From IMG/VR virus record IMGVR_UViG_3300020048_000003: a stretch of DNA of 64,000 nucleotides. One strand, given 5' to 3'. Each line of letters begins with the position of its first letter. Position 1 is the stretch's first letter. The notes under the pieces were generated by a model. The model ran no database searches, was not told the origin of the DNA, and saw nothing but the letters and a program-made list of their open reading frames with translations. Below are positions 2,121 to 63,689 of this stretch, one piece after another. This stretch comes from a virus. Position numbers and translations under genes: made by a program.

Positions 2121-3110
2121 ATGAATAATTTTAATTGTAAAATATGTGGAAAAGAATATCCATTATTATTAAGTTTTAGTAAACATTTAGCAAATAAACA
2201 TAAATATAATGGAGGATTAGTACAATATTATATTGATTATGAAAATTTCATAGTTCCTAAATGTATTTATTGTGATAATGAGGCTAAAAGAAAAGAAGGA
2301 TTAGAGTATAGAAAAACTTGTGGTGATAAAAATTGTATTAAAAAATTAAATATTAACAAAAAACACACAGAAGAAACAAAATCACAAATTAGTAAAAAAT
2401 TAATTGAGTCTCATAAAAAAGGTGAGCATTCTGGTTGGGATTTTATTAATAAGGATTTGAATAGAAGAAGTTATCCAGAAAAATGGTTCATTAAGAATGT
2501 ACTAGAAAAATATTCTTTTTATTACAAATATACAATAGAAGAAAAATTTCCTTTTGGTAAGTATTGGCTAGATTTTGCTATTATTGATATGAAAATTGAT
2601 ATAGAAATAGATGGTCAACAACATTTTAGAACGATTGATGCTATTGAACATGATAAAGAAAGAGATGAATTTGTGTTGAGTAAAGATTGGAAAGTATATA
2701 GAATTGCTTGGATTGAATTGAAAAATAATAGAGAAGATGTTGTTGATGATTTTTTAAATTGGATTGAACAAAATGAAATTAAATATCATAAATATGATGT
2801 TGATGAAATTGTTCATAAATTTAAAAAAAATAATTATCGAACTTATGATGTTAAAAAAATTAAACCATCAAAACATAAAAAATCTATTGAATATTTTTCA
2901 GATAGAAAAAATCAATATGATTTGAGGCAAATTCCTAATATAGAAAAAATTATTAATAGTGATATTGATTTTTCAAAAGAAGGTTGGGTAAAAAAGGTTT
3001 CTATTCTAATTGGTATATCAGAGAATAAAGGTTCGGGTTGGATGAAAAGAAACATGAATGAATTTTTTATTAATAATTGTTGGAAAAGAAAATCAAAGAA
3101 GGTCTTGTAG
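2121..3110 (+). CDS. homing-endonuclease-like protein (zinc-finger N-terminus, NUMOD3-like motif, C-terminal Vsr/DUF559-like endonuclease fold)
   Basis: CxxC...CxxC at the N-terminus. HTEETKSQISKKL resembles NUMOD3. IEIDGQQH...DKERDEFVLSKDWKVYRIAW resembles the DUF559/Vsr-like nuclease fold. The 3' end overlaps the tRNA at 3101. Confidence 0.5.
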   Translation: MNNFNCKICGKEYPLLLSFSKHLANKHKYNGGLVQYYIDYENFIVPKCIYCDNEAKRKEGLEYRKTCGDKNCIKKLNINKKHTEETKSQISKKLIESHKKGEHSGWDFINKDLNRRSYPEKWFIKNVLEKYSFYYKYTIEEKFPFGKYWLDFAIIDMKIDIEIDGQQHFRTIDAIEHDKERDEFVLSKDWKVYRIAWIELKNNREDVVDDFLNWIEQNEIKYHKYDVDEIVHKFKKNNYRTYDVKKIKPSKHKKSIEYFSDRKNQYDLRQIPNIEKIINSDIDFSKEGWVKKVSILIGISENKGSGWMKRNMNEFFINNCWKRKSKKVL

Positions 3111-5440: not shown

Positions 5441-6187
5441 CTACAATATATTGAATTGTTTTATTGAGTCAATAATTTTTGTATTAAGAAATTCTTTAAT
5501 TTCTTCTTCTGTGAAGCAATAATTTTTTCCTTTTGTGAGCATAAGTTTAATCAGATCAATTTTTTGATCAAATTCAATTTTGTTAAGATCAATAAGAACT
5601 AGTGATAGAGTTTGAAATAGTATTGATGTTTTTTCTTTTTCTGAGTAGAGAAGAAATTTTCTAGTTTGTTCACCAGTTTTTACTTTTTCACCTTTTATAT
5701 TTTTAAGTTTTATGCTTCTTTGTTCTTTTATTGGAATTTCTTCAAATCTATATGGGTTAACATAGTTTCTAACACCACGAATTTTTAGCATAATGTTGTT
5801 TATGAAATTACCGCCATATGTTTTTGTTTTTTCTCTTTTTTCATTTTCAACGTAGTATATTTCACCTTCTTTAAAGGATTTTCCAGAACTATATCTACAT
5901 CTAACGAATTGTCCTGTATAATTTTTTTCTGAGTCTAATGGTGCTCTATATGATCCAAAATCTTTATGATAATCTAATGATTTACCATCAATATCAGTAA
6001 AATTAGCAAGTGAATAAGTACCAATATTTTTGAGTGTTATTTTTCTCTCGGTGGTATGACTTGTATAAATACAGGTAGCTACATAGGTTGCACCTTTTAA
6101 GAGTTTTGTAGAATTTCTTGCGTTTATGCAGATAACTTTTATTGGTTCGTGATAAGGTGTCATAGATTTATATTTGGTTTTTAACAA
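5441..6187 (-). CDS. hypothetical protein
   Basis: ORF track. Confidence 0.5.
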   Translation of the reverse strand: MLKTKYKSMTPYHEPIKVICINARNSTKLLKGATYVATCIYTSHTTERKITLKNIGTYSLANFTDIDGKSLDYHKDFGSYRAPLDSEKNYTGQFVRCRYSSGKSFKEGEIYYVENEKREKTKTYGGNFINNIMLKIRGVRNYVNPYRFEEIPIKEQRSIKLKNIKGEKVKTGEQTRKFLLYSEKEKTSILFQTLSLVLIDLNKIEFDQKIDLIKLMLTKGKNYCFTEEEIKEFLNTKIIDSIKQFNIL

Positions 6188-6262
6188 AAGTAAGTATTTT
6201 TTATGGAATAAAAAAATGAAAATGAAATTTTAATATATACCGTAAAACTATAATTATTTATT

Positions 6263-6901
6263 ATGATCAGAAAATCTCAGAATGGGTATGATATAATTCA
6301 AGGTATAGTAAATAATGATTATTTTGTTAGTGATTTATCTAATGATAGGTATAAATTTTATTATAGGATTCAAAATTTAAATAGAGAGCCGGTTCAGGAA
6401 TTTAGAAGACCTAGTTATGTATTGAGTTTAATATTTTTATTTTTAATTGTGGTATCAGGATTTTTAATTATAGAACAGCAGCCAAGAAACGTTTCTGAAA
6501 AATTATTTAAGACTTATTATAGTTCTGAAAATATTATTGATATAACTCGTTCTGATGAAGTTAATGTAGCGATAGTTAGATTTAAAGATAAGGATTATGC
6601 TGAAGCATCGGTATTATTTTCAAATATAATCAAGAGGGATAGTACAAATATTGCTGTTATTTTTTATAATGGTATATGTCAAATTGAGAATAATGAACTT
6701 GAGAATGCTATAAAATCTTTTCAGTATATAATACGATATGAAGATACTTTATATGTTGAGCATGCAGAGTGGTATTTGGCGTTATGTTATTTAAAAACCC
6801 ATCAACTTGATTTAGCAAAGGTTCAATTCAAAAAGATTGTAAGTGAGGATGATAATTATTATAAAAAAGATGCTCAAAAGATTTTATCTGAGTTGAAGTA
6901 A
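6263..6901 (+). CDS. membrane-anchored TPR-like protein
   Basis: Internal hydrophobic helix LSLIFLFLIVVSGFLII. The C-terminal region has TPR-like helices. Confidence 0.4.
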   Translation: MIRKSQNGYDIIQGIVNNDYFVSDLSNDRYKFYYRIQNLNREPVQEFRRPSYVLSLIFLFLIVVSGFLIIEQQPRNVSEKLFKTYYSSENIIDITRSDEVNVAIVRFKDKDYAEASVLFSNIIKRDSTNIAVIFYNGICQIENNELENAIKSFQYIIRYEDTLYVEHAEWYLALCYLKTHQLDLAKVQFKKIVSEDDNYYKKDAQKILSELK

Positions 6902-8132: not shown

Positions 8133-8545
8133 TGTTTTAATTGTTTAAGTTTTAGGTATCTTTCTGCTTGTTGTAAATCTTCATTCAATACAAAATAAAA
8201 TGGGTCATACCAAATTTCGTTTTGATTATTTATTTCATTTTCTAATTCATCCCAAAATTTACCATTTGTTTGAAAGATGTATAATTTATTTTTTTTAAAT
8301 GTAAATGTTTCAAACAATGGTTTACGTTTCTCGGCATATTTATTATAATTATGATTTGAACGATGATAAATCATGTTATCACCTGAAAAATCAACATAAT
8401 CACAATTTGATGAAAGGTTAAAATTTTTGAAATTTTTTACATATGAAGTTTCTTCAAAATTTTCATCAACTATTATGTTTATAATACTATTTCTCAAATG
8501 ATAAACATCACCATATTTTTTGAATAATTTAGTCTCCATACGCAT
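8126..8545 (-). CDS. hypothetical protein
   Basis: ORF track. Confidence 0.45.
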   Translation of the reverse strand: MRMETKLFKKYGDVYHLRNSIINIIVDENFEETSYVKNFKNFNLSSNCDYVDFSGDNMIYHRSNHNYNKYAEKRKPLFETFTFKKNKLYIFQTNGKFWDELENEINNQNEIWYDPFYFVLNEDLQQAERYLKLKQLKQC

Positions 8546-8756
8546 CTGCCTTATAAAAAATAATATCCATTATAAGAGTCTGAAAAAATGCACAAAAAAC
8601 TGGTATTGTTAAAATATCATGTATTGTAATATTTGGTGTTTCTGCCGCCCATATCCAAAAACAAGCATAAATCAAATAACTAAACACAAACATAAATCCA
8701 ACCCATATAACTCTAAAACTTTGCCATTTTGTAAAGTATCTTTTTATAGTTTTCAT
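8529..8756 (-). CDS. small membrane protein
   Basis: Two hydrophobic helices. Confidence 0.4.
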   Translation of the reverse strand: MKTIKRYFTKWQSFRVIWVGFMFVFSYLIYACFWIWAAETPNITIHDILTIPVFCAFFQTLIMDIIFYKADAYGD

Positions 8757-8761
8757 AGTTT

Positions 8762-8953
8762 TTAATATATTGAGATTATATTTTCGGGATAAACTAACAT
8801 AACATCTGGAGTATCAAAGTCCATATCCATATCATCTTTTTCAAGTTTTACTAAATACATATCATGGTGATTATTTCCGTTTCTTACTTTGTCGTAAACT
8901 ATACCTGTATAGTCACAATCGTCAATTCTAAAAGTTATTTTTCTACCTATCAT
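8762..8953 (-). CDS. hypothetical protein
   Basis: ORF track. Confidence 0.35.
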   Translation of the reverse strand: MIGRKITFRIDDCDYTGIVYDKVRNGNNHHDMYLVKLEKDDMDMDFDTPDVMLVYPENIISIY

Positions 8954-11577: not shown

Positions 11578-14500
11578 TTAGAAAATATAACGTACTCCAA
11601 CTTGTGCTCCCCAAGTACTTTGAGTTGAAAGTACAGGTGTGAATGTTGATGTTGGTAATGAAGAACCAGTATAATTCATTTGATAATGAGGAATACCATC
11701 TGTTCCAGTTTTACTCATTTTTAATAAAGTAATATCATATGAACCTAAGGTTTGTTTTTGATAGATACCCCAACTTGAGTTTAGTAAATTTCCAACATTT
11801 AATAAATCTAAGCTTATTTGTAATGTTTGTCTTTTATTATTTTTACCTACTCCTGTAAATATATCTTGTAAAAGTTTTACATCAAATCTATTTACCCAAG
11901 GCATAATAACACCATATCTCTCAGCATATTGTCCTTTGTTTTCTGATAAGTATTCATCTTGATCAACATAAGCCCAGAAAGCAGCATTTTGTTCTTCTGA
12001 TGTAAATATTGTTTCAAATGTACCATCTGCTAATTTTTTAGTAATAGGATCAAAAATTATTTCGGACTCATCTTTAGGAATATACATAAGGTCAGCGGCA
12101 TTACCATCACCGTTCATGTCATTTGAATAGATATAATCTAAACGACCTTGGCTACTACCTTGATATACTAATGATACTGAAGTTCCTAAATGTTTAAGAT
12201 ATTCTTTATGATAAGTTACTGAACCTATAACTCTGTTAGGTACAGCGAATTGTGAATAACTTAATTCTAAAGCATTTTGACTTGCTACTGTTGGATTGCT
12301 TGCCCATGCTGATGATGCTGCGGAACCTGGATTTGAAGTAAAGTCTTTTACACCAAAGTGTGTATAAGCAATAAAGCCACTAAATCCATTTTGGAATTGT
12401 TTACTTAACTGTGCGGTTAATGAATATGAGTATCCATTTTCAATTGAAAGTTCATTAGTTAGAACCATTGCGTTGCTAACTCCTGGATTGATTTTGCGAG
12501 TAGCAGAGAAGTATCTTGGTCGCATATCTGGACCATTGAATGTTGCGGTGCTATCTTTTTGGTTTGCATTATATTGAATAACATCATTGATATTATTTGA
12601 ATACATACCTTCAAATGTTCCAACAATACCCCAAGGTAATTTAACATCAACTGCTAAATTAGTTCTCCAAACTTGTGGCATTTTGAATTTTGGATCAACA
12701 ACAGCAATAGAGCCAGGTGCAACACTTGATGGTTGACTTGGAAATAATGTTGTGTTGGATAAGTGATAGAAAGGATCTGGATTGAAAGTTAAATCTACTA
12801 ATTGAGCAGCTTTTGTAACTTCAACTGTGTTTTGTAGAGTTCCAGAATTTGTTGGTTGGTTTGTGAACCATACAAATGGTAATCTACCTGTAAAAACTCC
12901 TGAACCTCCTCGTACTTGAAGTGATTTATCTCCCTTAACATCCCAGTTAAAACTTACTCTAGGAGAGAAGGTGGGTTTGGATTCGGGCCATTTGCCAGCA
13001 TCTAATGTTAAATCTTCACCATTTAAATCTTTGAAAGTTAAATCTGTGATTGATGGATTAGGAATTAAATTATCAAAATATATTGGTAGTTCAATTCTTA
13101 AGCCTGCTGTTACTTTCAAATTATCTAAAATTTGAATTTCATCTTGTCCATAAAGAGCAGCGTAGCCAAAGGTTAATTCAGCATATCCATTTCCTGCGCC
13201 TTCATAAGGATAAGTTAGACCAAATGTAGTAGGAATTCCACCATTATAAAAATCATCCATAGATGCATATCTATAATAGCTTGTTCCATATCTTTTGTAA
13301 CTATTAGCAAAATACATTTGATCATAAGATGCACCTATTGTAAATGTGTGCATTCCCATATAATAGTTATAGTTATTAATAAAAGTTAATGTGTTATTTT
13401 TTACATCATTATCTTTTGTAAATAATTCATAACCAAATGACATGTAAGGATCTCCATCTTTATAAATATCAACAAATGGAAAAGGTGAACTGTTACTATT
13501 TCTAGTATCTTGAATTTTAGTATAAGTAAATAAGAATTTATTTGCAGATTTACCCCAAACACTATTTAATTCTGCTGATACTGAACCTACTGTATTAAGA
13601 AATCCATAATTAGAATTACTGAATGCCATAGATTTTTCTCCAATACGACCAAATGTTGAACGAGTTCCTGGTGCACTTGTTGCATTAACTTGTTGATCGT
13701 TAGTTGATTCAACATAGTTATATCTAACAGCGAATTTGTGATGTTGGTTAATATTCCAATCAATTTTTCCTAAAATTTTGTAATTATTACTTTCAAAATT
13801 TCCAAAATTTTGATAACTTCCAGCATCATATTGATATGTATTTTTGAGATAATCACTCATAACTGACATATCAGTAGCAGTTGTTCTAGAAATATAATTC
13901 GCAGCATCTGGTTCAATACCATTTTCTGGATCGCTTACACTCCAAGGAATTCCTGGATATGATGATTTTTCCTTTTCTGCGTTAAAGAATATAAATAATT
14001 TATTCTTTATAATTGGTCCTCCTACTGATGCTCCGTAACTAAGTGTACTTTGATCGGTTAGTGTTAACTCTTTATCTTCTACTTTTTTTCCATTGAAGGA
14101 TTTATCACGGAAATAAGTATAAGCGGTTCCTTTCCATTCGTTAGTACCACTTTTAGTAACAGCATTAATATTTGCACCTGTAAAATTTGACTGTCTAATA
14201 TCAAATGGTGCGACATTTACGCTAATTTCTTCAATAGCATCTAAACTAATTGGTTGTGCATCACCACCTGGTAGTGATTTTGTGCTTAGTCCGAAGTTGT
14301 TGTTGAAGTTTGCACCGTCAACTGTGATGTTATTGTATCTTCCATCACGACCTGCAAAACTGGTTCCGTTGGATTGTGGTGTCATTTTAGTGAAATCTGT
14401 AATACTTCTATTGATAGAAGGTAATGCTTTGATTTCAGCCAAATTGATGTTTGTTGATGCTCCAGTTTTATTACCATCAATTAATTGATTTTTTTGTGCT

Positions 14501-14925
14501 GTTACTTCAACACCTGTAATTTCACTGGCATTTTGAGATAGTGTTTCATTTAATCCTAGTGTTTGTCCTAAGTTTAAATTGATATTTTCCTCAACAATTG
14601 GTTTGTAGCCAACGTAGGATATGGTTAGTGTGTAAGGTCCTCCAACTTTTAAGTTAGTAATTCGGTAGAGCCCATCCACATCTGTAACTGTGCCGTATTG
14701 TGTTCCTGTTGGAACATGAACTAATACAACACTTGCACCTGGCAATGAGACTTTGTTTTCTCCATATATCTTACCACTTATACCTGAAGTGGTAACTTGA
14801 GCAAACATTATCAAACTGCTAAATGAGAACAATAGAAAAAAGATTAATCTTTTTAGGTTTTTTGTCATAGTTTTGATTTTTTTTTTGACTTCCCGCGGAA
14901 TTACGAGAGTTATCATTTTTATCAA
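11578..14925 (-). CDS. TonB-dependent outer-membrane receptor (Bacteroidetes type: CarbopepD_reg N-domain, plug, 22-strand barrel)
   Basis: Signal peptide. N-terminal domain VTTSGISGKIYGENKVSLPGASVVLVHVPTGTQYGTVTDVDGLYRI. Plug-like region. C-terminus ends ...VGVRYIF. GC is noticeably higher than flanking DNA. Confidence 0.85.
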   Translation of the reverse strand: MIKMITLVIPREVKKKIKTMTKNLKRLIFFLLFSFSSLIMFAQVTTSGISGKIYGENKVSLPGASVVLVHVPTGTQYGTVTDVDGLYRITNLKVGGPYTLTISYVGYKPIVEENINLNLGQTLGLNETLSQNASEITGVEVTAQKNQLIDGNKTGASTNINLAEIKALPSINRSITDFTKMTPQSNGTSFAGRDGRYNNITVDGANFNNNFGLSTKSLPGGDAQPISLDAIEEISVNVAPFDIRQSNFTGANINAVTKSGTNEWKGTAYTYFRDKSFNGKKVEDKELTLTDQSTLSYGASVGGPIIKNKLFIFFNAEKEKSSYPGIPWSVSDPENGIEPDAANYISRTTATDMSVMSDYLKNTYQYDAGSYQNFGNFESNNYKILGKIDWNINQHHKFAVRYNYVESTNDQQVNATSAPGTRSTFGRIGEKSMAFSNSNYGFLNTVGSVSAELNSVWGKSANKFLFTYTKIQDTRNSNSSPFPFVDIYKDGDPYMSFGYELFTKDNDVKNNTLTFINNYNYYMGMHTFTIGASYDQMYFANSYKRYGTSYYRYASMDDFYNGGIPTTFGLTYPYEGAGNGYAELTFGYAALYGQDEIQILDNLKVTAGLRIELPIYFDNLIPNPSITDLTFKDLNGEDLTLDAGKWPESKPTFSPRVSFNWDVKGDKSLQVRGGSGVFTGRLPFVWFTNQPTNSGTLQNTVEVTKAAQLVDLTFNPDPFYHLSNTTLFPSQPSSVAPGSIAVVDPKFKMPQVWRTNLAVDVKLPWGIVGTFEGMYSNNINDVIQYNANQKDSTATFNGPDMRPRYFSATRKINPGVSNAMVLTNELSIENGYSYSLTAQLSKQFQNGFSGFIAYTHFGVKDFTSNPGSAASSAWASNPTVASQNALELSYSQFAVPNRVIGSVTYHKEYLKHLGTSVSLVYQGSSQGRLDYIYSNDMNGDGNAADLMYIPKDESEIIFDPITKKLADGTFETIFTSEEQNAAFWAYVDQDEYLSENKGQYAERYGVIMPWVNRFDVKLLQDIFTGVGKNNKRQTLQISLDLLNVGNLLNSSWGIYQKQTLGSYDITLLKMSKTGTDGIPHYQMNYTGSSLPTSTFTPVLSTQSTWGAQVGVRYIF

Positions 14926-21677: not shown

Positions 21678-22685
21678 TTATTGAAAAGTTTGATTATTTA
21701 TTACAGGATTTTCGTTTATATTAAGTACATTTACTGTTACTGTTGCTGAACTTGATAGAGCCGGTGTACCATTATCAATTACTTTAATCACTAATGCGAA
21801 AGATGGTGTTGTTTCATAATCAAGTTGAGAAGGATTAGTTACAAGTAATGCACCTGTTGCGGCATTTATAGAGAATGTGCCACCCGTATTTCCAGACTCA
21901 ATTGAGAAAGTTTTTGTTTGTCCAGCATCAGGATCAGTGGTGACAATAGTTCCAACTAATGTGGCATTTGCAGAATTTTCATTCACATTAAATGTTTGAT
22001 TATTAATAACTGGTGTTTCGTTTACATTAAGTATATTAACTGTAATTGTTGCTTGTGCAGATAGTGGTACAGTTGCATTGTCTTGTACTTTTACAACAAT
22101 AGGAATGGATTGAACTGTTTCATAATTCAATATTGGAGAATTAAAAACTGTTAATACTCCTGATGTTGCGTTTATTGCAAATACTCCTCCAGTGTTTCCT
22201 GATACGATAGAATATGTTTTTGTTTGTCTTGCTTCTGGGTCCGTAGCAACTACGGTACCAATTACTGTACTATTTGATGAATTTTCATTTATACTAAATG
22301 TTTGAGGTGCAATACTTGGCACAGTATTATATTCATTTAATGTGATAAGATAAGTAGAAAATTTAGGATCTGGTAGACCATTTGTTGTACCATTATCTAA
22401 TAGTTTAAGTGTGAAAGTAAATGTAGTTAATGTACTATTATTTATTGCTGTAGCGTCATTTACAAATATATCACCAAGTGTATTTTTCCATAGTGTCTGT
22501 GTTTCTACTATACTCCAAGTAATTGTGTTATTTTCAGGATCACAACCTGTAAAATGTTCAACTTGTAAGTTGGCTGTTACTGGTTTATAGAAATTTATTG
22601 GTTTTACTACATATGTAGGACATATAGTTTGACTGAAGCCAATGAATGACATTAGCATTAAGATGATTGTAAATAATTTTTTCAT
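21678..22685 (-). CDS. secreted cadherin-like repeat protein
   Basis: Signal peptide. Tandem ~95-aa repeats containing SGNTGGVFAINATSGVLTV..NYETVQS, a cadherin-like L.YE signature. Confidence 0.55.
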   Translation of the reverse strand: MKKLFTIILMLMSFIGFSQTICPTYVVKPINFYKPVTANLQVEHFTGCDPENNTITWSIVETQTLWKNTLGDIFVNDATAINNSTLTTFTFTLKLLDNGTTNGLPDPKFSTYLITLNEYNTVPSIAPQTFSINENSSNSTVIGTVVATDPEARQTKTYSIVSGNTGGVFAINATSGVLTVFNSPILNYETVQSIPIVVKVQDNATVPLSAQATITVNILNVNETPVINNQTFNVNENSANATLVGTIVTTDPDAGQTKTFSIESGNTGGTFSINAATGALLVTNPSQLDYETTPSFALVIKVIDNGTPALSSSATVTVNVLNINENPVINNQTFQ

Positions 22686-47294: not shown

Positions 47295-48242
47295 ATGGCA
47301 AGAGGAAGTAATTATATTTCATATTTTGGTGGAAAGAATAAAGCATCAAATTGGATTTGGTCACAAGTAACACCAGAAATGAAAAAATCAACAAAAATTT
47401 TTACTGAGGTTTTTTCGGGTGCTTTTTGGGTTTATCTTAATGAAGATTTTAGTTTTGCTGATAAAATCATATATAATGATATGAATCAGTATCTTACAAA
47501 TTTTTATGCTTGTGTGAGTACTCCAGAATATGTGGAACACTTAGAAAAACTTAGTAAACCAGGTGAATTATTACATTTTAATGTAAATTTAAAATCAACA
47601 CCAAAAGAAACTTATGATCATTATTACAGTTACTTTAAGGAATTGTTTCAAAAATATCGTCAAGAACTCTATTATGATAGAATAGGAGAACAGTTTACTA
47701 TAAATATACCTGACTTTGATCTTGCCGTAAAGTATGGTATAATGTTACGTCATGCGTTCTCAGGTATAAGTAATGATAAACAATGTGGTTTTTCTTATTC
47801 AGCATCTTCTTATATTGAAGGCAAAAAATGTCCAGAACCAAAATCGCAAATGCTAATAAGAAAAGTTAAAGATCCAATTTTAACAAATAAACTTAATAGA
47901 GTTAGCGCATTTGAATGTCTTGATTTTGAAGAACATATAAACAAATATGATTCAGAGAGTACATTATTTTATTTGGATCCACCTTATTATAGTACTGAAT
48001 TTCAATATTATAGAGGTAAAGAACATTTTGGAAAAGAAGGTCATCAAAGATTGGCAAATGTATTAAAAGATATAAAAGGAAAATTTATTTTATCTTATTA
48101 TGATTTTGATGGTTTAGATGAAATGTATCCGAGGAATGAGTTTAGATGGGAAGAAAAATCTTTTACAAGAGCAAGTACAACAATATCAAATCAAACTCTT
48201 GAAGAGAAGCAAGGTCATGAAATTTTAATCATGAACTATTAA
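47295..48242 (+). CDS. Dam-family N6-adenine DNA methyltransferase (alpha class)
   Basis: N-terminal YFGGKNK and FSGAFWVYLN (motif I), then DPPYYSTEF (motif IV). Confidence 0.7.
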   Translation: MARGSNYISYFGGKNKASNWIWSQVTPEMKKSTKIFTEVFSGAFWVYLNEDFSFADKIIYNDMNQYLTNFYACVSTPEYVEHLEKLSKPGELLHFNVNLKSTPKETYDHYYSYFKELFQKYRQELYYDRIGEQFTINIPDFDLAVKYGIMLRHAFSGISNDKQCGFSYSASSYIEGKKCPEPKSQMLIRKVKDPILTNKLNRVSAFECLDFEEHINKYDSESTLFYLDPPYYSTEFQYYRGKEHFGKEGHQRLANVLKDIKGKFILSYYDFDGLDEMYPRNEFRWEEKSFTRASTTISNQTLEEKQGHEILIMNY

Positions 48243-51309: not shown

Positions 51310-52128
51310 TTATTCTGATTTTTTTAGTTTTTCTACCTTTCTTCGTTTTCTTTCTTGATAGGTTATACCTTTAATAAAATGATTATCAATTTCATTTTGA
51401 TATTTTTGTCTATAGTCCTCAACATTATTTAGTCTTTCTTTTGCCATTTTAATATAATTTTCAGATATATCAATACCTACATAATTACAACCAAACAATG
51501 TTGCTGAAAGTGCGACGGTGCCAGATCCGCAATAAGGATCTAATACAATTTTATCCTTATCATTGTCAAATATAGAGTAGATAATCCTTGTAGGCAATTC
51601 TAACGGAAAAGGCGCAGGATGTGGGTTTTTATTCTCAGGCATTATATCCCATATGGCTGTAGCATTTGCGTGTTTTGGTAAAAGTTCTTTTCCTATTTTA
51701 GAATGGTTTGGTTTGTATAGCCAATAAATTCTTTCGTCTGTTTGCCAAAATCTCCATCCTCTTAAATTTCCAGTTATTTTTCTATTCCATACAATTTCTT
51801 GTTTAATCATGAAATTAGTTTTACTTAACCAAAGTATTGGATGAATCATATTTCCTTCATCCCATCTACATTTATGATTATAAAAAAATGAACCACCAGG
51901 TTTTAAAGTTCTATAAACTTCATTGATTACTTCAATCTGACGACTTTGATATACATCTTCTGGAAGATTATCATCATAAGAATCATACTTTACTTTTTTA
52001 ATAATCTGACCTTGATTATTTCGCTTATTATAGGGTGGGCTTGTAATTGCGAGATCAAAATAGTCAGAATCTATCAATTGTAATGTTTTTAATGTTTCTC
52101 CTATTAGTAATTCATTTAGTGGTTTCAT
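51310..52128 (-). CDS. DNA methyltransferase, beta class (N4-C/N6-A; motif IV SPPY before motif I), family A tail
   Basis: DLAITSPPYNKRN, then LDPYCGSGTVALSA. C-terminal tail RKRRKVEKLKKSE with no downstream gene. Confidence 0.7.
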   Translation of the reverse strand: MKPLNELLIGETLKTLQLIDSDYFDLAITSPPYNKRNNQGQIIKKVKYDSYDDNLPEDVYQSRQIEVINEVYRTLKPGGSFFYNHKCRWDEGNMIHPILWLSKTNFMIKQEIVWNRKITGNLRGWRFWQTDERIYWLYKPNHSKIGKELLPKHANATAIWDIMPENKNPHPAPFPLELPTRIIYSIFDNDKDKIVLDPYCGSGTVALSATLFGCNYVGIDISENYIKMAKERLNNVEDYRQKYQNEIDNHFIKGITYQERKRRKVEKLKKSE

Positions 52129-58419: not shown

Positions 58420-58482
58420 TGAAATATATTAGATTGTTTGAAGATAATAAGATATAAAACAGTTTAAATGGAAACATTTATA

Positions 58483-58512
58483 AAAAAAGAGCCAAAAGGC
58501 TCTTTTTTTATA
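58483..58512 (-). terminator. rho-independent terminator after the helicase gene
   Basis: AGAGCC-TTTT-GGCTCT with a T-run on the minus strand. Confidence 0.55.
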
Positions 58513-60061
58513 AAACTTCATTTAAGAAGTCTTCCATACTTAGTGAGGCAATTCTTTCATCTTCATAATCAGCCTCTACTTCTTCAATATTTTTACCGAT
58601 ATTAGGACACCTTTTTTTCAATTTATTCAATGCTTCTGGTCCATCAATAGTTGGTAATCCATTTGCATCATTTGATATAACCATATCATCAACTGGATTG
58701 AATCCAAAATCTCTCATTTTGTGAATTAGTTCACCAATATGCTCTTTACTATCTTTATTTTCATGTATAATTTCTGGTATAATAACCCAAGCATACTTTT
58801 TAATGAAATCTTTCAAATTTAGAGGGTTTAATACACCATCTTCCAATTTTTTGCGATCTCTTGGATCTGGTCTTGCCGAACGACCATAAGTCTGAAAAAA
58901 TTTAGAATCACTTAATTCTCTTAATGGCATAATCCCTGTGAATCCAGAAATATCAATACCTTCAGCAACTATATCATAGTGTAAAACAATAAGTTCCTTA
59001 CTTGGATCTTCACCATCTATTTTTAATCTTTTAAGAAAATCTTGTCTTGTTGTTTTTTCACCATTTATATTATTACCAATAGCATCATTAGATGAAACCA
59101 TATAAATATTAACACCACGGATATTCCTTAAATAATCATATTCTGGACTATTTAAAAATTTAACCATATCTTTTGTTCCAGTAACACTCAACAACATTTT
59201 TGGTCTAAGTTCAGACACATATTGATGTTGTTTAAATGATTCAAGTATAATATTAGGAATACTATTTTGAAATTCATCTTTATTGAATTCTAAACTTTGA
59301 TTTTTAAGACGAACAAAGTGCATTCTTGGTCTAACCATTTTACCTTTTGAAATTGCTTCCATTGGTGTCATTGTGAATAAATTCTTACCATAAAATTTTT
59401 CGTTGTTCATACCCCTACCTTCAGATGATTCTGAATGAATTTCAGTAGCAGTAAAGAAATAAAAACGATTTGGTTTTAATATTTTTAATAGTTCAAAAAA
59501 TTTACCTTGAACTAAATATTGTGCTTCATCATTCACAACGATTTCAATTTTTTTCTCGTCTTTCAATGAAAGTTCAATTCTATCAGCACTATTATAAGTA
59601 GAAAAGAAAATTAATGGTAAATTTTGGTTTTCAGATTTTTTGATCATTTCTTTTATGATATCTGATGATGTACCATTTGCAATATCAGAATAAGGAATAT
59701 TATCTTCTAAATTTTCATTTGCATTTTCACGAATTTTTTCCAATTCCTGAATATCAGTTTGCCCACCTGAATGAACGCACATATACCTTGCTTCAACACC
59801 AAATTTAACTAAAAATGAATAAACTTCTCTAAGAAGTTGATAAGATAACATAATACGAGGAGCATTTATCACATAAATCCTAAATTTATTAGGATTTTTC
59901 AAAATATCAATAGCAATTATAGCGGCTTGAATCCTTGTTTTACCTGTACCTGTAGGAAGAATAACTTTACCTTTTTTACTTAGGTTAGTTGCTTGTAATG
60001 CTTCTTGTTGGTAGTCATACAAGGAATCTATAATTTGTTTAATTTTATTTTCGTTTTTCAT
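58508..60061 (-). CDS. SF2 (DEAD/DEAH-like, ResIII-type) helicase
   Basis: Motif I ILPTGTGKT, II VNDEAQ, III FSTYNS, VI QTYGRSAR. Start set at MKNENKI (60061) because a class-1 promoter at 60081-60092 lies inside the longer ORF extension. Confidence 0.7.
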   Translation of the reverse strand: MKNENKIKQIIDSLYDYQQEALQATNLSKKGKVILPTGTGKTRIQAAIIAIDILKNPNKFRIYVINAPRIMLSYQLLREVYSFLVKFGVEARYMCVHSGGQTDIQELEKIRENANENLEDNIPYSDIANGTSSDIIKEMIKKSENQNLPLIFFSTYNSADRIELSLKDEKKIEIVVNDEAQYLVQGKFFELLKILKPNRFYFFTATEIHSESSEGRGMNNEKFYGKNLFTMTPMEAISKGKMVRPRMHFVRLKNQSLEFNKDEFQNSIPNIILESFKQHQYVSELRPKMLLSVTGTKDMVKFLNSPEYDYLRNIRGVNIYMVSSNDAIGNNINGEKTTRQDFLKRLKIDGEDPSKELIVLHYDIVAEGIDISGFTGIMPLRELSDSKFFQTYGRSARPDPRDRKKLEDGVLNPLNLKDFIKKYAWVIIPEIIHENKDSKEHIGELIHKMRDFGFNPVDDMVISNDANGLPTIDGPEALNKLKKRCPNIGKNIEEVEADYEDERIASLSMEDFLNEVL

Positions 60062-60113
60062 AGTTTTTCTGTTTTGATACTGCAAAGATACAATAAAATA
60101 TTGGAACAAAAAA

Positions 60114-60710
60114 TTATTTTTTCAATTCCGATGCAATATTCCTGCATAAATCCCAAAAATGAAAGTTGTTATCCAAAAGAGATTTCAAATCTTCAATACC
60201 ATAACATTTAACAAATCCTTTAAACATTTCATTATCTGTATAAAAATTTAATCCTTTTGCAGTAGTGAAAACATAATGTCTTGGCACATCTGTATTGCTC
60301 TCTGGTGCAATAATTTTAAATTTAAACATAGCATCAGCAATGAAGTTACTAAGATGGTCTTCATTTGCGGTTAGAGTTTTCATGGTGTTTGAACGATATT
60401 TAACTTGAATTGCACATTTTTCACGAAGTGAATTTAATCCTGTACCATCAACACCATTATCATCAGATTGAACTGGTTCATACCCAGCAATATTGATTCT
60501 ATTATCATATTGAGAGGTTTTGATAATAAGTTCTACTAAAAATTCAAAACCATCACCAACATATTTATCCCTATCATATCGATCTGGATCAAGTTTACCT
60601 TGTTTTTCAAGTTTTCGCATGAATGTTGACATTTTGTTGGTATCTTTGAATAAAGCAACAATATCATGTGCTCTTTTACCAAATCCGTGTTGAATATCTT
60701 TTGAAGTCAT
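60114..60710 (-). CDS. Mrr-like PD-(D/E)xK restriction-endonuclease-domain protein
   Basis: GYEPVQSDDNGVDGTG...REKCAIQVKYRSN matches the Mrr catalytic core D.G.DG...Q.K. Start set at MTSKDIQ because a promoter at 60734-60744 lies inside the longer ORF. Confidence 0.55.
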   Translation of the reverse strand: MTSKDIQHGFGKRAHDIVALFKDTNKMSTFMRKLEKQGKLDPDRYDRDKYVGDGFEFLVELIIKTSQYDNRINIAGYEPVQSDDNGVDGTGLNSLREKCAIQVKYRSNTMKTLTANEDHLSNFIADAMFKFKIIAPESNTDVPRHYVFTTAKGLNFYTDNEMFKGFVKCYGIEDLKSLLDNNFHFWDLCRNIASELKK

Positions 60711-60767
60711 AGAGGTTTTATTTTTGATTGAAGAGCAAAGGTACAAAATTATATTGAGATAAAAAAA

Positions 60768-61079
60768 TTAAGTTTTAACTTGAACCATAAAATCTACCAT
60801 ATCATCAATTGTGACTTTTGTGAAATCCATATCACAACCTTCTTTATTTGTATCATTTGGTATCAAGATATAATGATATAATAGTTTATATCTATTATCT
60901 TTATTATCTAATAAATATTCATAGATAATATAGTTTAGAGCATGTAGCGGTAATTCATTAATCTTAATATCAGATTTTTTTGGTTTTGTAAATTGCTTAT
61001 TTGAACCAATCTTATATTGATTATTCTGAAGTTTTTCTAAAATTATATCGTAGTATTCTTTAATTGTCATATCAATCAA
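60768..61079 (-). CDS. hypothetical protein
   Basis: ORF track. Confidence 0.4.
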   Translation of the reverse strand: MIDMTIKEYYDIILEKLQNNQYKIGSNKQFTKPKKSDIKINELPLHALNYIIYEYLLDNKDNRYKLLYHYILIPNDTNKEGCDMDFTKVTIDDMVDFMVQVKT

Positions 61080-62547
61080 TAAATTCTTTCCAGAAATCTT
61101 TTCTAAATAATTCTAAAATTTTTGGATATGCCAATGGGTTTCCAGCAGTTGAAACAAATTTAGTATTTAAATTTATATTTTGAAATTTTTTGCTTTTTAA
61201 GCAAATATCAATTTTAGATAAATTCTCAACATCATCAATTATTCCATATGCATATTGTGTCATTCCATATAATCCATTATTATCAATAACACTTGTTGGA
61301 TTTGCACCATTACCTAATATAAGTTTTACAATACCAAAATGTCCATTGGTGTTTTTATTAGACCAATGCAAATTAAATTTATTATCTTTTAACACACTAT
61401 AAATACAAGGATATTTAAATTCTGTTGTCATTTCTTTTGACATAAATGGTTTTCTTGTTTCGTATGCTGAATAACTATGTAGAATTTTAACTTTTTCTTC
61501 ATTATTCTTTGCTAATAATTTTTTAATTTCTGAGAACATCCCATTAGGAATAAATTCCATATCGTTAAGATTAACATTCTCTATTGTACCATCTTGACAT
61601 TTAACAATTGTTTGCTTATTTTTTATTGTATTAATATTATTAATACAATAAAAATCATATGGTGTTGTTGCGTTAAAAGTTTTTTCACCATCTGCACTAT
61701 TATGCATCTCAAGATAAATAATATATTTTGATAATAATAGTTTTTGTATATTTTTATATATTCCATCAACATTTCTCCATCCTGATGGATGAACCATAGT
61801 CATATATCCACCTTCTGATAATACTGAAACATATTTTTCAACAAAAAATTGCCAAATAGATTGTGTTTTTTTAAATCCTTCTTTTTTTTCTTGATATGGT
61901 GGATTTCCAACCATAACATCTAGTTTTTCAATTTTCCATTCATTTTTCATATGTTCATCAAATTCTTTTTCTAAAGAATTGCCCCTATACAAGTTCAATT
62001 TGAACTCATTTCTTGGATCAATACTTACCATCCAAAAGAACATATTTTTTATCTGAAGTTCAGCAACATAAATCATATTTTCAACAATATGTTTATATCT
62101 TTTTTCTTGGTTAGGTTCCCATGATTCAAGACCAATCATCAATCGTTTTATGATTATAACCATAAAATTACCAACACCATTACAAAAATCTCCCCATTTC
62201 AAATTAGGATTATTCCATACCTCAACTGGTAAAGTATCTAGCATGTCATTTATCAACCAAAATGCTGTAAATATTTCACCATATGATTTTTTCTCAACTT
62301 CTCCAACTGGATTATATTTTCTTATTCTTTCAATAACTTTATCTAATTCGGATATTCTATCAATAGATTTTATTTTTATAAGCATATTTTTTAATTCATT
62401 GTCTTTTTTATAACAAAGAGCAGCAAGCATAGCAATTCTTTTTTTCTCTCTAGGTAATCCTTCAATTATAACTCGGATTTTTGCACCATGTTGAGATTCA
62501 ATAATGTCTAAAACACTTTGTTCTATATTGTATATATTATTTTTCAT
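61072..62547 (-). CDS. N6-adenine DNA methyltransferase, gamma class, with a C-terminal target-recognition region
   Basis: Motif I-like WGDFCNGVGNFMVII precedes motif IV VMVGNPPYQ. A class-1 promoter lies at 62578-62590. Confidence 0.7.
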   Translation of the reverse strand: MKNNIYNIEQSVLDIIESQHGAKIRVIIEGLPREKKRIAMLAALCYKKDNELKNMLIKIKSIDRISELDKVIERIRKYNPVGEVEKKSYGEIFTAFWLINDMLDTLPVEVWNNPNLKWGDFCNGVGNFMVIIIKRLMIGLESWEPNQEKRYKHIVENMIYVAELQIKNMFFWMVSIDPRNEFKLNLYRGNSLEKEFDEHMKNEWKIEKLDVMVGNPPYQEKKEGFKKTQSIWQFFVEKYVSVLSEGGYMTMVHPSGWRNVDGIYKNIQKLLLSKYIIYLEMHNSADGEKTFNATTPYDFYCINNINTIKNKQTIVKCQDGTIENVNLNDMEFIPNGMFSEIKKLLAKNNEEKVKILHSYSAYETRKPFMSKEMTTEFKYPCIYSVLKDNKFNLHWSNKNTNGHFGIVKLILGNGANPTSVIDNNGLYGMTQYAYGIIDDVENLSKIDICLKSKKFQNINLNTKFVSTAGNPLAYPKILELFRKDFWKEFID

Positions 62548-62685
62548 TTAGATTGTTTTAAGTTTCTTATTCAACTCTGCAAAAGTACGGATTATTTTTG
62601 AATTAAAAAAACTTTTAGTAATTATAAATGTACTGAATTATTATCCGAATTAAAAATTAAAGTTTATATTTTAATATATAACTAT

Positions 62686-63042
62686 ATGAAATATTTTAAG
62701 TCGTTTGAAGATTACTCTAATTACTCAAGTAATAAGTTAAAATTTCCAGATAAAAATTTCCAGATGGCATTTATGGAGGATATGATGGATGTTTATATGA
62801 ATCCTGAATCTTTTTATAAATTTTATTTCAAAGGTGGCTTAACAAGAGAAATGATGTTAGAGTATATTGATCTTTTTATAAAAGTAAGAGGAGGTAATTT
62901 TTTAGGAGACCTTTTTGATAGAGAAATTTTCAGAGACTTATTACTTTTTAAATTTTTTAATGTACCATTAAGTGATATAGATTCAAATATTGAACCATTT
63001 CTAACTGATTTTGAAGTAGATACAAATAAATATAATCTCTAA
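62686..63042 (+). CDS. family B cassette protein (MKYFKSFEDY ... TNKYNL)
   Basis: Conserved termini. Confidence 0.5.
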   Translation: MKYFKSFEDYSNYSSNKLKFPDKNFQMAFMEDMMDVYMNPESFYKFYFKGGLTREMMLEYIDLFIKVRGGNFLGDLFDREIFRDLLLFKFFNVPLSDIDSNIEPFLTDFEVDTNKYNL

Positions 63043-63071
63043 AAGAGATATTTACAAAAGTAAATTAATTT

Positions 63072-63374
63072 ATGAAATATATCAAACTATTTGAATTACT
63101 TGAACTTGAGCAATATAGTAAATATTGGAAGATAAGAACAGATACACCATACTATAACATTAGTTTAGATAAAATAAAAATGCCAAAAGATATACAAAAA
63201 GATTATTTAGATTCAGAAATAAGAAGAAGATATTTTAAAAATTTAAAATTTGTTTTTATTGCAAAAGAACAAGCAGGAACAGGATTTGAATGGACTTGGA
63301 GTGGTTATGAAACTGAATATAGAAAAAAGTTCAGAAATATGGGTGATCACATCAGAAGATTTAGAAGAATATGA
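63072..63374 (+). CDS. family B cassette protein (MKYIKLFELLE). The KYNL junction downstream is in a different frame.
   Basis: The stop at 63372-63374 precedes the junction element AAATAAATATAATTTATGA, which reads ...VNKYNL in the +1 frame. Confidence 0.45.
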   Translation: MKYIKLFELLELEQYSKYWKIRTDTPYYNISLDKIKMPKDIQKDYLDSEIRRRYFKNLKFVFIAKEQAGTGFEWTWSGYETEYRKKFRNMGDHIRRFRRI

Positions 63375-63404
63375 ATTAAATAAAACTGTAAATAAATATA
63401 ATTT

Positions 63405-63689
63405 ATGAAATATATTAAAACATACGAATCATACATCCAGCCTGGAAACAAAGAAGTAAATTACAAAATAGGTGATATAGTAGTTTGTAGTACTAAAAAA
63501 AAACTTATGAATCCAAATGATCCTGGTAAAGTGCCAATATATGGTAGAAAATATAAAATATTAGATATGTTTCAAAATCAATATCTAACAATACAAGATA
63601 TTGTTGATACTTCTTTTATTCAAATTGGATGGGATAAAAGAAATTTTACATCAGAAATAAAATGGGATTTAAATAATTATAACTTATAA
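63405..63689 (+). CDS. family B cassette protein (MKYIKTYESY ... LNNYNL)
   Basis: Conserved termini. ATGA overlap with the next gene. Confidence 0.5.
   Translation: MKYIKTYESYIQPGNKEVNYKIGDIVVCSTKKKLMNPNDPGKVPIYGRKYKILDMFQNQYLTIQDIVDTSFIQIGWDKRNFTSEIKWDLNNYNL

Follow-up and report, generated by a model that had tools for sequence, protein, structure and literature searches.

The locus described here raises the question of whether a DNA methyltransferase, a nuclease, and a helicase encoded side by side in a viral genome act as one restriction-modification (R-M) machine or serve separate ends. It lies in IMG/VR virus record IMGVR_UViG_3300020048_000003, of which a stretch of 64,000 nucleotides, referred to below as the window, was analyzed, and it consists of a four-gene cassette on the minus strand (window 58477-62587) encoding, in order, a methyltransferase, a protein of 100 amino acids (aa), an Mrr-family nuclease, and a superfamily 2 (SF2) motor. 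A first-pass annotation, made from the sequence alone, had proposed a split R-M system resembling Type I/ISP or Type III enzymes and had listed a modification-dependent nuclease, or a self-protective methyltransferase next to a replication or repair helicase, as alternatives. Our results narrow this proposal to a Type ISP-like system on the following grounds: (i) relatives exist in which the three activities are fused in collinear order, (ii) the nuclease matches LlaBIII, and (iii) the recognition half of the methyltransferase has been swapped between otherwise near-identical cassettes. Judged from the sequences, the cassette is likely to be a multi-subunit, phage-borne counterpart of the Type ISP ATP-dependent R-M enzymes; it is not a strict member of that type.

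The four minus-strand open reading frames (ORFs) are present where the first-pass annotation had placed them. Its length for the methyltransferase (491 aa) stands, while the 103, 199, and 518 aa given for the other three proteins are replaced by 100, 198, and 517 aa in public gene calls; the resetting of its starts to internal Met codons is borne out, with a difference of at most one residue, by gene calls made independently for two public contigs (209 and 286.6 kb), which encode the identical 198-aa and 517-aa proteins. A megablast search of the region against GenBank phages gave no match.

One indication that the three large proteins belong together comes from fused relatives. An exhaustive HMMER search with the 198-aa nuclease defined a family of 385 representative clusters (50% identity, E <= 1e-3), most of which are stand-alone proteins of about 200 aa, with several long proteins carrying the nuclease as an N-terminal domain. 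Pfam scans of the top 150 representatives identified four proteins of 716-752 aa in which the nuclease is joined to a ResIII/DEAD motor (P0158, P0167, P0183, and P0211; Helicase_C is also present in P0158, P0167, and P0211), one of 1076 aa (P0222) that contains nuclease, motor, and a short methyltransferase-like stretch, and two that combine nuclease, motor, and N6_Mtase/Eco57I in one chain (P0174, 1257 aa, and P0220, 1251 aa). In BLASTP comparisons, the three window proteins align one after another along P0220, first the nuclease, then the motor and the methyltransferase: residues 1-192 align with the window nuclease (E 1e-24), residues 232-708 with the helicase (34% identity, E 7e-69), and residues 827-1242 with the methyltransferase (40% identity over 435 aa, E 6e-91), whereas the segment of about 118 aa between motor and methyltransferase (residues 709-826) is not clearly matched by any part of the window proteins. 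In all scanned fusions that show both domains, the nuclease comes before the motor, and a methyltransferase gene lies directly beside the two-domain fusions P0158 and P0211. The fused proteins themselves occur in phage-like contexts, with P0222 encoded on a T4-like contig adjoining gp23. Plain phmmer comparison of the fused relatives gave no match to LlaBIII or LlaGI; PADLOC yielded only partial matches, the most informative being a Type ISP-sized profile of 1646 positions that matches residues 33-349 of P0174 (3e-13). A gene resembling adenylosuccinate synthase lies 3 kb upstream of the fused 1251-aa gene (locus L008, 3749-4996); it is possibly PurZ-like, which would hint at a 2-aminoadenine genome.

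The 198-aa protein (60114..60710, minus strand; start at Met13 of a 210-aa ORF) contains the GVDGTG and IQVKY sequences and shows the full Mrr/LlaGI motif signature of Type ISP enzymes, with motif I at F55-E56, motif II at D84-N-G-V-D88, and motif III at Q102-V-K104. In LlaGI, this signature was defined by mutagenesis as F-E (E38), D74-x-G-V77-D78, and Q92-x-K94, motif II including a family-specific supplementary Asp (PMC2790908), and the distance from D to Q, 14 residues, is the same in the two proteins. Across an alignment of 101 family members, E56 and K104 are invariant and G52, E60, D84, G86, D88, and Q102 are at least 90% conserved, and when nine sequences representing stand-alone, cyanophage, and fused forms were aligned, no variation was seen at E56, D84, G86, V87, D88, Q102, and K104. 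A profile of the family searched against the Protein Data Bank (PDB) matched LlaBIII residues 23-111 with the motifs in register, at a marginal E value of 0.022, the sole other match having an E value of 1.3; the top PDB match by fold is likewise the LlaBIII nuclease domain. The 198-aa protein has no significant Pfam match, its PHROGs entry (phrog_7683) is labelled "unknown function," and a viral-contig search with the single protein returned just one close contig.

The helicase gene (58508..60061, minus strand; ORF of 533 aa) encodes an SF2 helicase-like ATPase of 517 aa (Pfam ResIII, 3.3e-11; DEAD, 1.4e-8) that is predicted to be a double-stranded DNA translocase motor. Its motifs, namely PTGTGKT (Walker A, residues 36-42), DE (178-179), TAT (204-206), and QxxGRxxR (390-397), are invariant among its relatives, and a helical C-terminal region extends from about residue 440 to 516. 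When the fused forms were included, the motor profile matched LlaBIII (1e-21) and the LlaGI helicase region (5ffj residues 8-258; 8e-18) far ahead of UvsW (5.5e-5), so that the sequence relationship to Type ISP motors appears real but remote. By fold, the motor is closest to the Type I HsdR motor rather than UvsW, and it is nearer to HsdR and Snf2-type double-stranded DNA translocases than to the XPB-Bax1 type. Profile and fold comparisons lead to LlaBIII for the nuclease, and fold comparison leads to HsdR for the motor, in keeping with the R-M-like assignment of the first-pass annotation, and the unlinked UvsW/Dda-like helicase that it had named as evidence to the contrary was not found: the fold is HsdR-like, and linkage to nuclease and methyltransferase is conserved. 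A search of 185,579 cellular genomes gave only partial matches at the level of Walker A in Planctomycetota and archaea, with no full-length helicase relative among the matches listed, which is suggestive of a family absent from cells.

The methyltransferase (61072..62547, minus strand; 491 aa, Pfam Eco57I, E 3.8e-10) is assigned to the gamma class of N6-adenine DNA methyltransferases, since motif I (DFCNGVGNF, residues 120-128) precedes NPPY (residues 215-218) and the variable target-recognition region, at about residues 240 to 480, is C-terminal. A relative is found in locus L011, from a related phage, which has the same four-gene cassette; just these four genes are contiguously common with the window, and the flanks differ. 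Between the two cassettes, identity is 89% for both the 100-aa protein and the nuclease and 91.5% for the helicase; within the methyltransferase, it is 70-95% across residues 1-200 and falls to 15-32% from about residue 240 onward. The recognition half has thus been swapped between near-identical cassettes. N- and C-terminal identities are discordant, in mosaic fashion, among 111 methyltransferase homologues; they are 82% and 43% for P0391, 55% and 61% for P0397, and 36% and 46% for the fused P0220. According to PMC3553950, LlaGI and LlaBIII differ in the same manner, the recognition half being exchanged and the remainder conserved, and such exchange is expected of an R-M specificity module under diversifying selection. 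We also considered whether the AdoMet-binding site of the window enzyme is degenerate (TA for TP and DF for DP) and set this aside: DF is found throughout the clade, and neither NPPY nor GxG is altered.

In many loci, the methyltransferase is split and permuted (L023, L031, L058, L060, L085, L089, L090 with Bellamy gp86 and gp88, and L001 at 5897-6301, corresponding to ACG-2014f gp051). The split form comprises an ORF of about 356-410 aa with NPPY and the recognition region, followed by an AdoMet-binding-only ORF of about 135-182 aa that matches Pfam N6_Mtase positions 18-97 and is equivalent to phrog_4376; in many cases, the end of one ORF and the start of the next share a few bases. The huge-phage record LR756508 contains a related split methyltransferase and no nuclease or helicase of the cassette families.

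Linkage across phages points in the same direction as the fusions. Viral contigs retrieved with a helicase alignment numbered 53, and close or moderate helicase relatives were found at 23 loci (L013-L031 and L058-L061, some of them near-duplicates). The nuclease gene is present in all 23, in most of them directly beside the helicase gene, upstream or downstream, and a methyltransferase ORF lies within 6 kb in 20; L029 has none within that distance, but lies at a contig edge. Gene order is freely permuted, the arrangements seen including methyltransferase-nuclease-helicase, nuclease-helicase-methyltransferase, helicase-nuclease-methyltransferase, and nuclease-methyltransferase-helicase. The module is also present in three cultured cyanomyovirus genera, each with a different order (ACG-2014f gp052, gp053, and gp054; S-CAM7 genes 054-056; Bellamy gp85-gp88). 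The synteny suggested by the window, therefore, recurs in permuted form in other phage genomes, and with linkage or fusion of these genes seen in numerous independent lineages of phages, their arrangement is not a chance juxtaposition.

The fourth gene of the cassette is of a different standing. The 100-aa protein (60768..61070, minus strand, as publicly called; 103 aa from TTG as an ORF) starts with an ATG at 61070, 1 nt past the methyltransferase stop, from which we take it to be translationally coupled to the methyltransferase. It is conserved only in L011 (89%) and L013 (59%), has no match in Pfam, PHROGs, PADLOC, or NCBIfam, no detectable similarity to the linker of the fused proteins, and no counterpart in other lineages. 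On these comparisons, it is best regarded as a lineage-specific accessory rather than a core part.

The comparison with known systems favors Type ISP enzymes. Like LlaGI and LlaBIII, the cassette has an Mrr-family nuclease, an SF2 motor with intact motifs, and a gamma-class N6-adenine methyltransferase with a C-terminal recognition domain; the gene for the nuclease immediately precedes that for the helicase, and the domain order is that of Type ISP in the fused relatives, of which P0220 and P0174 are also single polypeptides. PMC2790903 and PMC3553950 describe the biochemistry of Type ISP enzymes as recognition of an asymmetric site, methylation of just one strand, ATP-driven translocation, and cleavage upon head-to-head collision. 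Unlike in Type I systems, where a separate HsdS subunit with two recognition domains confers specificity, no cassette protein matches an S-subunit model, recognition residing within the methyltransferase chain, and the nuclease is a separate protein of the Mrr type (QxK), whereas in HsdR it is the N-terminal domain.

Several observations weigh against the Type ISP-like reading: (i) the cassette consists of separate genes (491, 100, 198, and 517 aa) instead of one polypeptide, and its proteins sum to about 1200 aa versus about 1570 for a Type ISP enzyme; (ii) no coupler domain, which in Type ISP enzymes lies between motor and methyltransferase, was identified; (iii) the proteins are at best distantly similar in sequence to LlaGI and LlaBIII, with no detected similarity in the case of the methyltransferase, whose profile matched M.TaqI and an HsdM weakly in the PDB and did not reach LlaBIII; (iv) a shallower profile built from stand-alone helicases matched XPB first (2e-10) and T4 UvsW next (8e-8) and did not find LlaBIII; (v) three loci (L006, L024, and L061) have nuclease and helicase without a methyltransferase within 6 kb; (vi) other loci contain a paralogous nuclease and helicase together with a DUF8425/8426 protein; and (vii) a hemimethylating restriction enzyme would be risky for a fast-replicating phage genome. 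In addition, the cassette family was found in phages and not, as Type ISP enzymes are, on bacterial plasmids and chromosomes, and none of the curated NCBIfam R-M models came near its cut-off for the cassette proteins. Single-sequence PDB searches with the nuclease, helicase, and methyltransferase were discarded, as they returned nothing useful or, as with the ankyrin designs matched by the methyltransferase, gave spurious results.

The paralogous pairs are seen in L005 (7995-14610) and L006 (8001-12495), where a nuclease of 243-244 aa and a 577-aa helicase of the same family have a DUF8425/DUF8426 protein as neighbor in place of a methyltransferase; genes of the CoaBC type are found nearby (Flavoprotein in both loci, DFP in L006). 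A further variant, without the nuclease, occurs in IMG/VR contigs L032-L037, L040, and L062 and consists of a protein of about 1060-1100 aa (weak ResIII plus Eco57I), a 141-aa AdoMet-binding piece, and then a 421-aa helicase that is 25-27% related to the window helicase. The window helicase matches 419 GenBank cyanophage records, and this variant is probably behind these many matches.

Some of these observations could also be accommodated if the methyltransferase were an orphan protective enzyme lying beside an unrelated nuclease-helicase machine for recombination, repair, or replication restart of the XPB-Bax1, Hef, or UvsW kind. The stand-alone helicase profile and the single-sequence helicase searches, which match XPB/Rad25, agree with such an arrangement, as do the three loci that have no methyltransferase nearby and the presence of other orphan methyltransferases in the same phage; swaps of the recognition half would likewise be expected if the methyltransferase tracked host R-M specificities. 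The cassette does resemble archaeal XPB-Bax1 in that a separate nuclease subunit accompanies an SF2 helicase whose motif I region is XPB-like, but the nuclease is of the Mrr family instead of Bax1, and fusion or linkage ties both proteins to a methyltransferase. The fusions contradict this explanation, which was also among the options of the first-pass annotation, and we consider it unlikely.

A second possibility keeps the three proteins together and assigns them to modification with little or no restriction, the motor aiding processive methylation of the genome and the nuclease being regulatory, nicking, or otherwise used. This phage invests heavily in methylation, with three methyltransferases in or near the window, and the nuclease-less variants, in which a ResIII plus Eco57I protein accompanies a helicase, are common in cyanophages. 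Against this stand the catalytic residues of the nuclease, which are invariant or nearly so in the family and therefore point to selection for cleavage, and the linkage between nuclease and motor, which is tighter than for any other pair; we regard modification without restriction as very unlikely.

Equally little credence, or slightly less, is due to a Type IV-like machine, in which a helicase-driven nuclease would attack modified DNA of a competitor or the host and the methyltransferase would have a separate role. The Mrr-type core had suggested such a modification-dependent enzyme in the first-pass annotation, but it does not imply one, since LlaGI, which has the same motif set, is described in PMC2790908 as cleaving DNA without being directed to methylated sites. 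The 198-aa protein comprises the nuclease core with helical extensions, and the four domain libraries searched contained no other domain matching it and, in particular, none that reads modified bases; LlaBIII is the top nuclease match by both sequence and structure; and relatives link the nuclease to a methyltransferase or fuse it covalently to one that has a recognition region. The remaining candidates can be dismissed briefly: a Type III system, also raised in the first-pass annotation, because the nuclease lies upstream of or N-terminal to the motor (in Type III Res, the helicase is N-terminal and the nuclease C-terminal) and the methyltransferase is gamma class and not a beta-class Mod, and BREX or DISARM, in which a PglX- or DrmMI-type methyltransferase is accompanied by PglZ/BrxC/BrxL or DrmA/B/C, because no other component of these systems matches the four cassette proteins, a weak local PglX similarity being present only in the fused relatives.

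Returning to the Type ISP-like reading, a working mechanism can be outlined by homology with LlaGI/LlaBIII and the Type I enzymes, from which we infer that the subunits form a complex, move along DNA at the expense of ATP, cut it, and protect the phage's own DNA by methylation, and from which we also infer what is restricted. The 491-aa subunit would read a specific, probably asymmetric, site via its variable C-terminal half and would N6-methylate an adenine there, marking the DNA of the phage as its own. At unmethylated sites, the complex would fire the 517-aa SF2 motor, which would hydrolyze ATP and translocate along double-stranded DNA, with the 198-aa nuclease held at the motor N terminus, where relatives have a covalent join, and cutting when translocation stalls or two complexes collide. 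The use of the machine is likely to be offensive or competitive, namely the cutting of unmethylated host DNA, DNA of co-infecting phages, or both.

Virus-borne R-M systems are known, including the Type III EcoP1I of phage P1 and the Type II systems of chloroviruses. Jumbo phages, moreover, carry Mom-REase fusions, and use against host DNA or superinfecting phages, as we suggest here, has been proposed for such virus-borne pairs of modification and nuclease functions (PMC7824862). Unlike the P1, chlorovirus, and Mom-REase systems, the cassette is predicted to be an ATP-dependent, translocating, Type ISP-like machine. In the jumbo-phage survey of PMC7824862, the passages covered (12 of 19 matching places) mention M.EcoKI-like methylases and no nuclease-motor-methyltransferase module, and our full-text literature search found Type ISP enzymes only as single-chain bacterial proteins, with no split or phage-encoded form.

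The cassette also has its own expression signals and boundaries. A TAnnTTTGC box lies 25-35 nt before the ATG of each of the three large genes, in agreement with the first-pass annotation, which had assigned each its own promoter element: TACTTTTGC (62579..62587, minus strand) upstream of the methyltransferase, within a divergent intergenic region (62548-62685), TACCTTTGC (60735..60743, minus strand) upstream of the nuclease, and TATCTTTGC (60082..60090, minus strand) upstream of the helicase. No such box precedes the 100-aa gene. These boxes are of the sigma-A type, TAnnTTTG being the flavobacterial sigma-A -7 consensus (PMC9723704), and fit the Bacteroidota-style host gene in the window described below. 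Their positions are kept in related cassettes: the counterpart of the methyltransferase box in L011 is TAATTTTA, with one mismatch; that of the nuclease box is TATATTTG in L011 and TATCTTTG in L013; and that of the helicase box in L011 is TATCTTTG. Across the window, 18 boxes were counted at a distance of 10-60 nt before a start on the same strand, compared with 7.6 +/- 2.7 when boxes were placed at random (500 trials, maximum 16), but since the wrong-strand control gave 11, this enrichment offers only moderate support. A scan for E. coli-type sigma-70 promoters showed no enrichment (51 versus 45.8 expected) and was set aside in favor of the Bacteroidota -7 box. The leaders between box and ATG (60062-60081, 60711-60734, and 62548-62578, minus strand) are A-rich and without Shine-Dalgarno sequences, matching the initiation of translation without such sequences that is described for Bacteroidetes in PMC6847099. 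At the other end, an intrinsic terminator (58477..58514, minus strand), a GC-cored hairpin between A and T runs, directly follows the helicase stop and could be active in both directions. Since it has a divergent promoter region at one end and a terminator at the other, the cassette forms a bounded unit, and, as each of the three large genes has a promoter of the host sigma-A type, they are probably expressed early by host RNA polymerase.

The rest of the window provides the genome setting. The DNA has a G+C content of about 26% and comes from a very large T4-like phage; other genes include a gp32 homologue, a Dam-type methyltransferase, and a 1115-aa outer-membrane protein resembling SusC/TonB-dependent receptors (CarboxypepD_reg plus an OMP beta-barrel; 11578-14925, minus strand). 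The last of these is probably an auxiliary gene taken from the host, and it points to a member of the Bacteroidota as that host. Together with the cassette enzyme, two further methyltransferases, of the D12/Dam and N6_N4_Mtase classes (47295-48242, plus strand, and 51310-52128, minus strand), bring the phage to at least three DNA methyltransferases. Another product, of 335 aa, has a pair of cadherin domains (Pfam Cadherin, E 7e-34; 21678-22685, minus strand) and may serve in adhesion or decoration. Read divergently from the cassette are tandem small paralogous ORFs of 118, 100, and 94 aa (62686-63689, plus strand), which share the N terminus MKY(I/F)K; two of the three, as well as an overlapping 52-aa ORF, end in (K/N)YNL. 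Genes resembling homing endonucleases occur in the window (DUF559/Vsr-like, 2121-3110, plus strand), next to the L011 cassette (LAGLIDADG, L011 3014-3811), and directly after the 1076-aa fusion in L087 (T5orf172, 8225-8896), and they may be relevant to the mobility of the cassette or to gene fission.

R-M systems are usually treated as a bacterial defense against phages, while here a translocating machine of the R-M type appears to belong to lytic phages. The exchange of recognition halves slightly favors an arms race over specificity, and a wider reading, which we put forward tentatively, is that the cassette represents a new, virus-specific, Type ISP-like lineage. It would span all states of fission and fusion, between sets of three or four genes and a single chain of 1250 aa, and would be widespread both in cultured cyanomyoviruses and among T4-like and jumbo phages of Bacteroidota. 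Lytic phages would turn it against the chromosomes of their hosts and against competing phages, and recognition shuffling would drive a phage-versus-phage arms race over specificity. Because three cultured cyanophage-Synechococcus systems carry the module, the hypothesis is directly testable. The family, a natural collection of split and fused forms of one enzyme, is useful material for studying the coupling between nuclease, motor, and methyltransferase in Type I as well as Type ISP enzymes. If active, the module would add a weapon to marine phage-host and phage-phage conflict and would explain part of phage methylomes.

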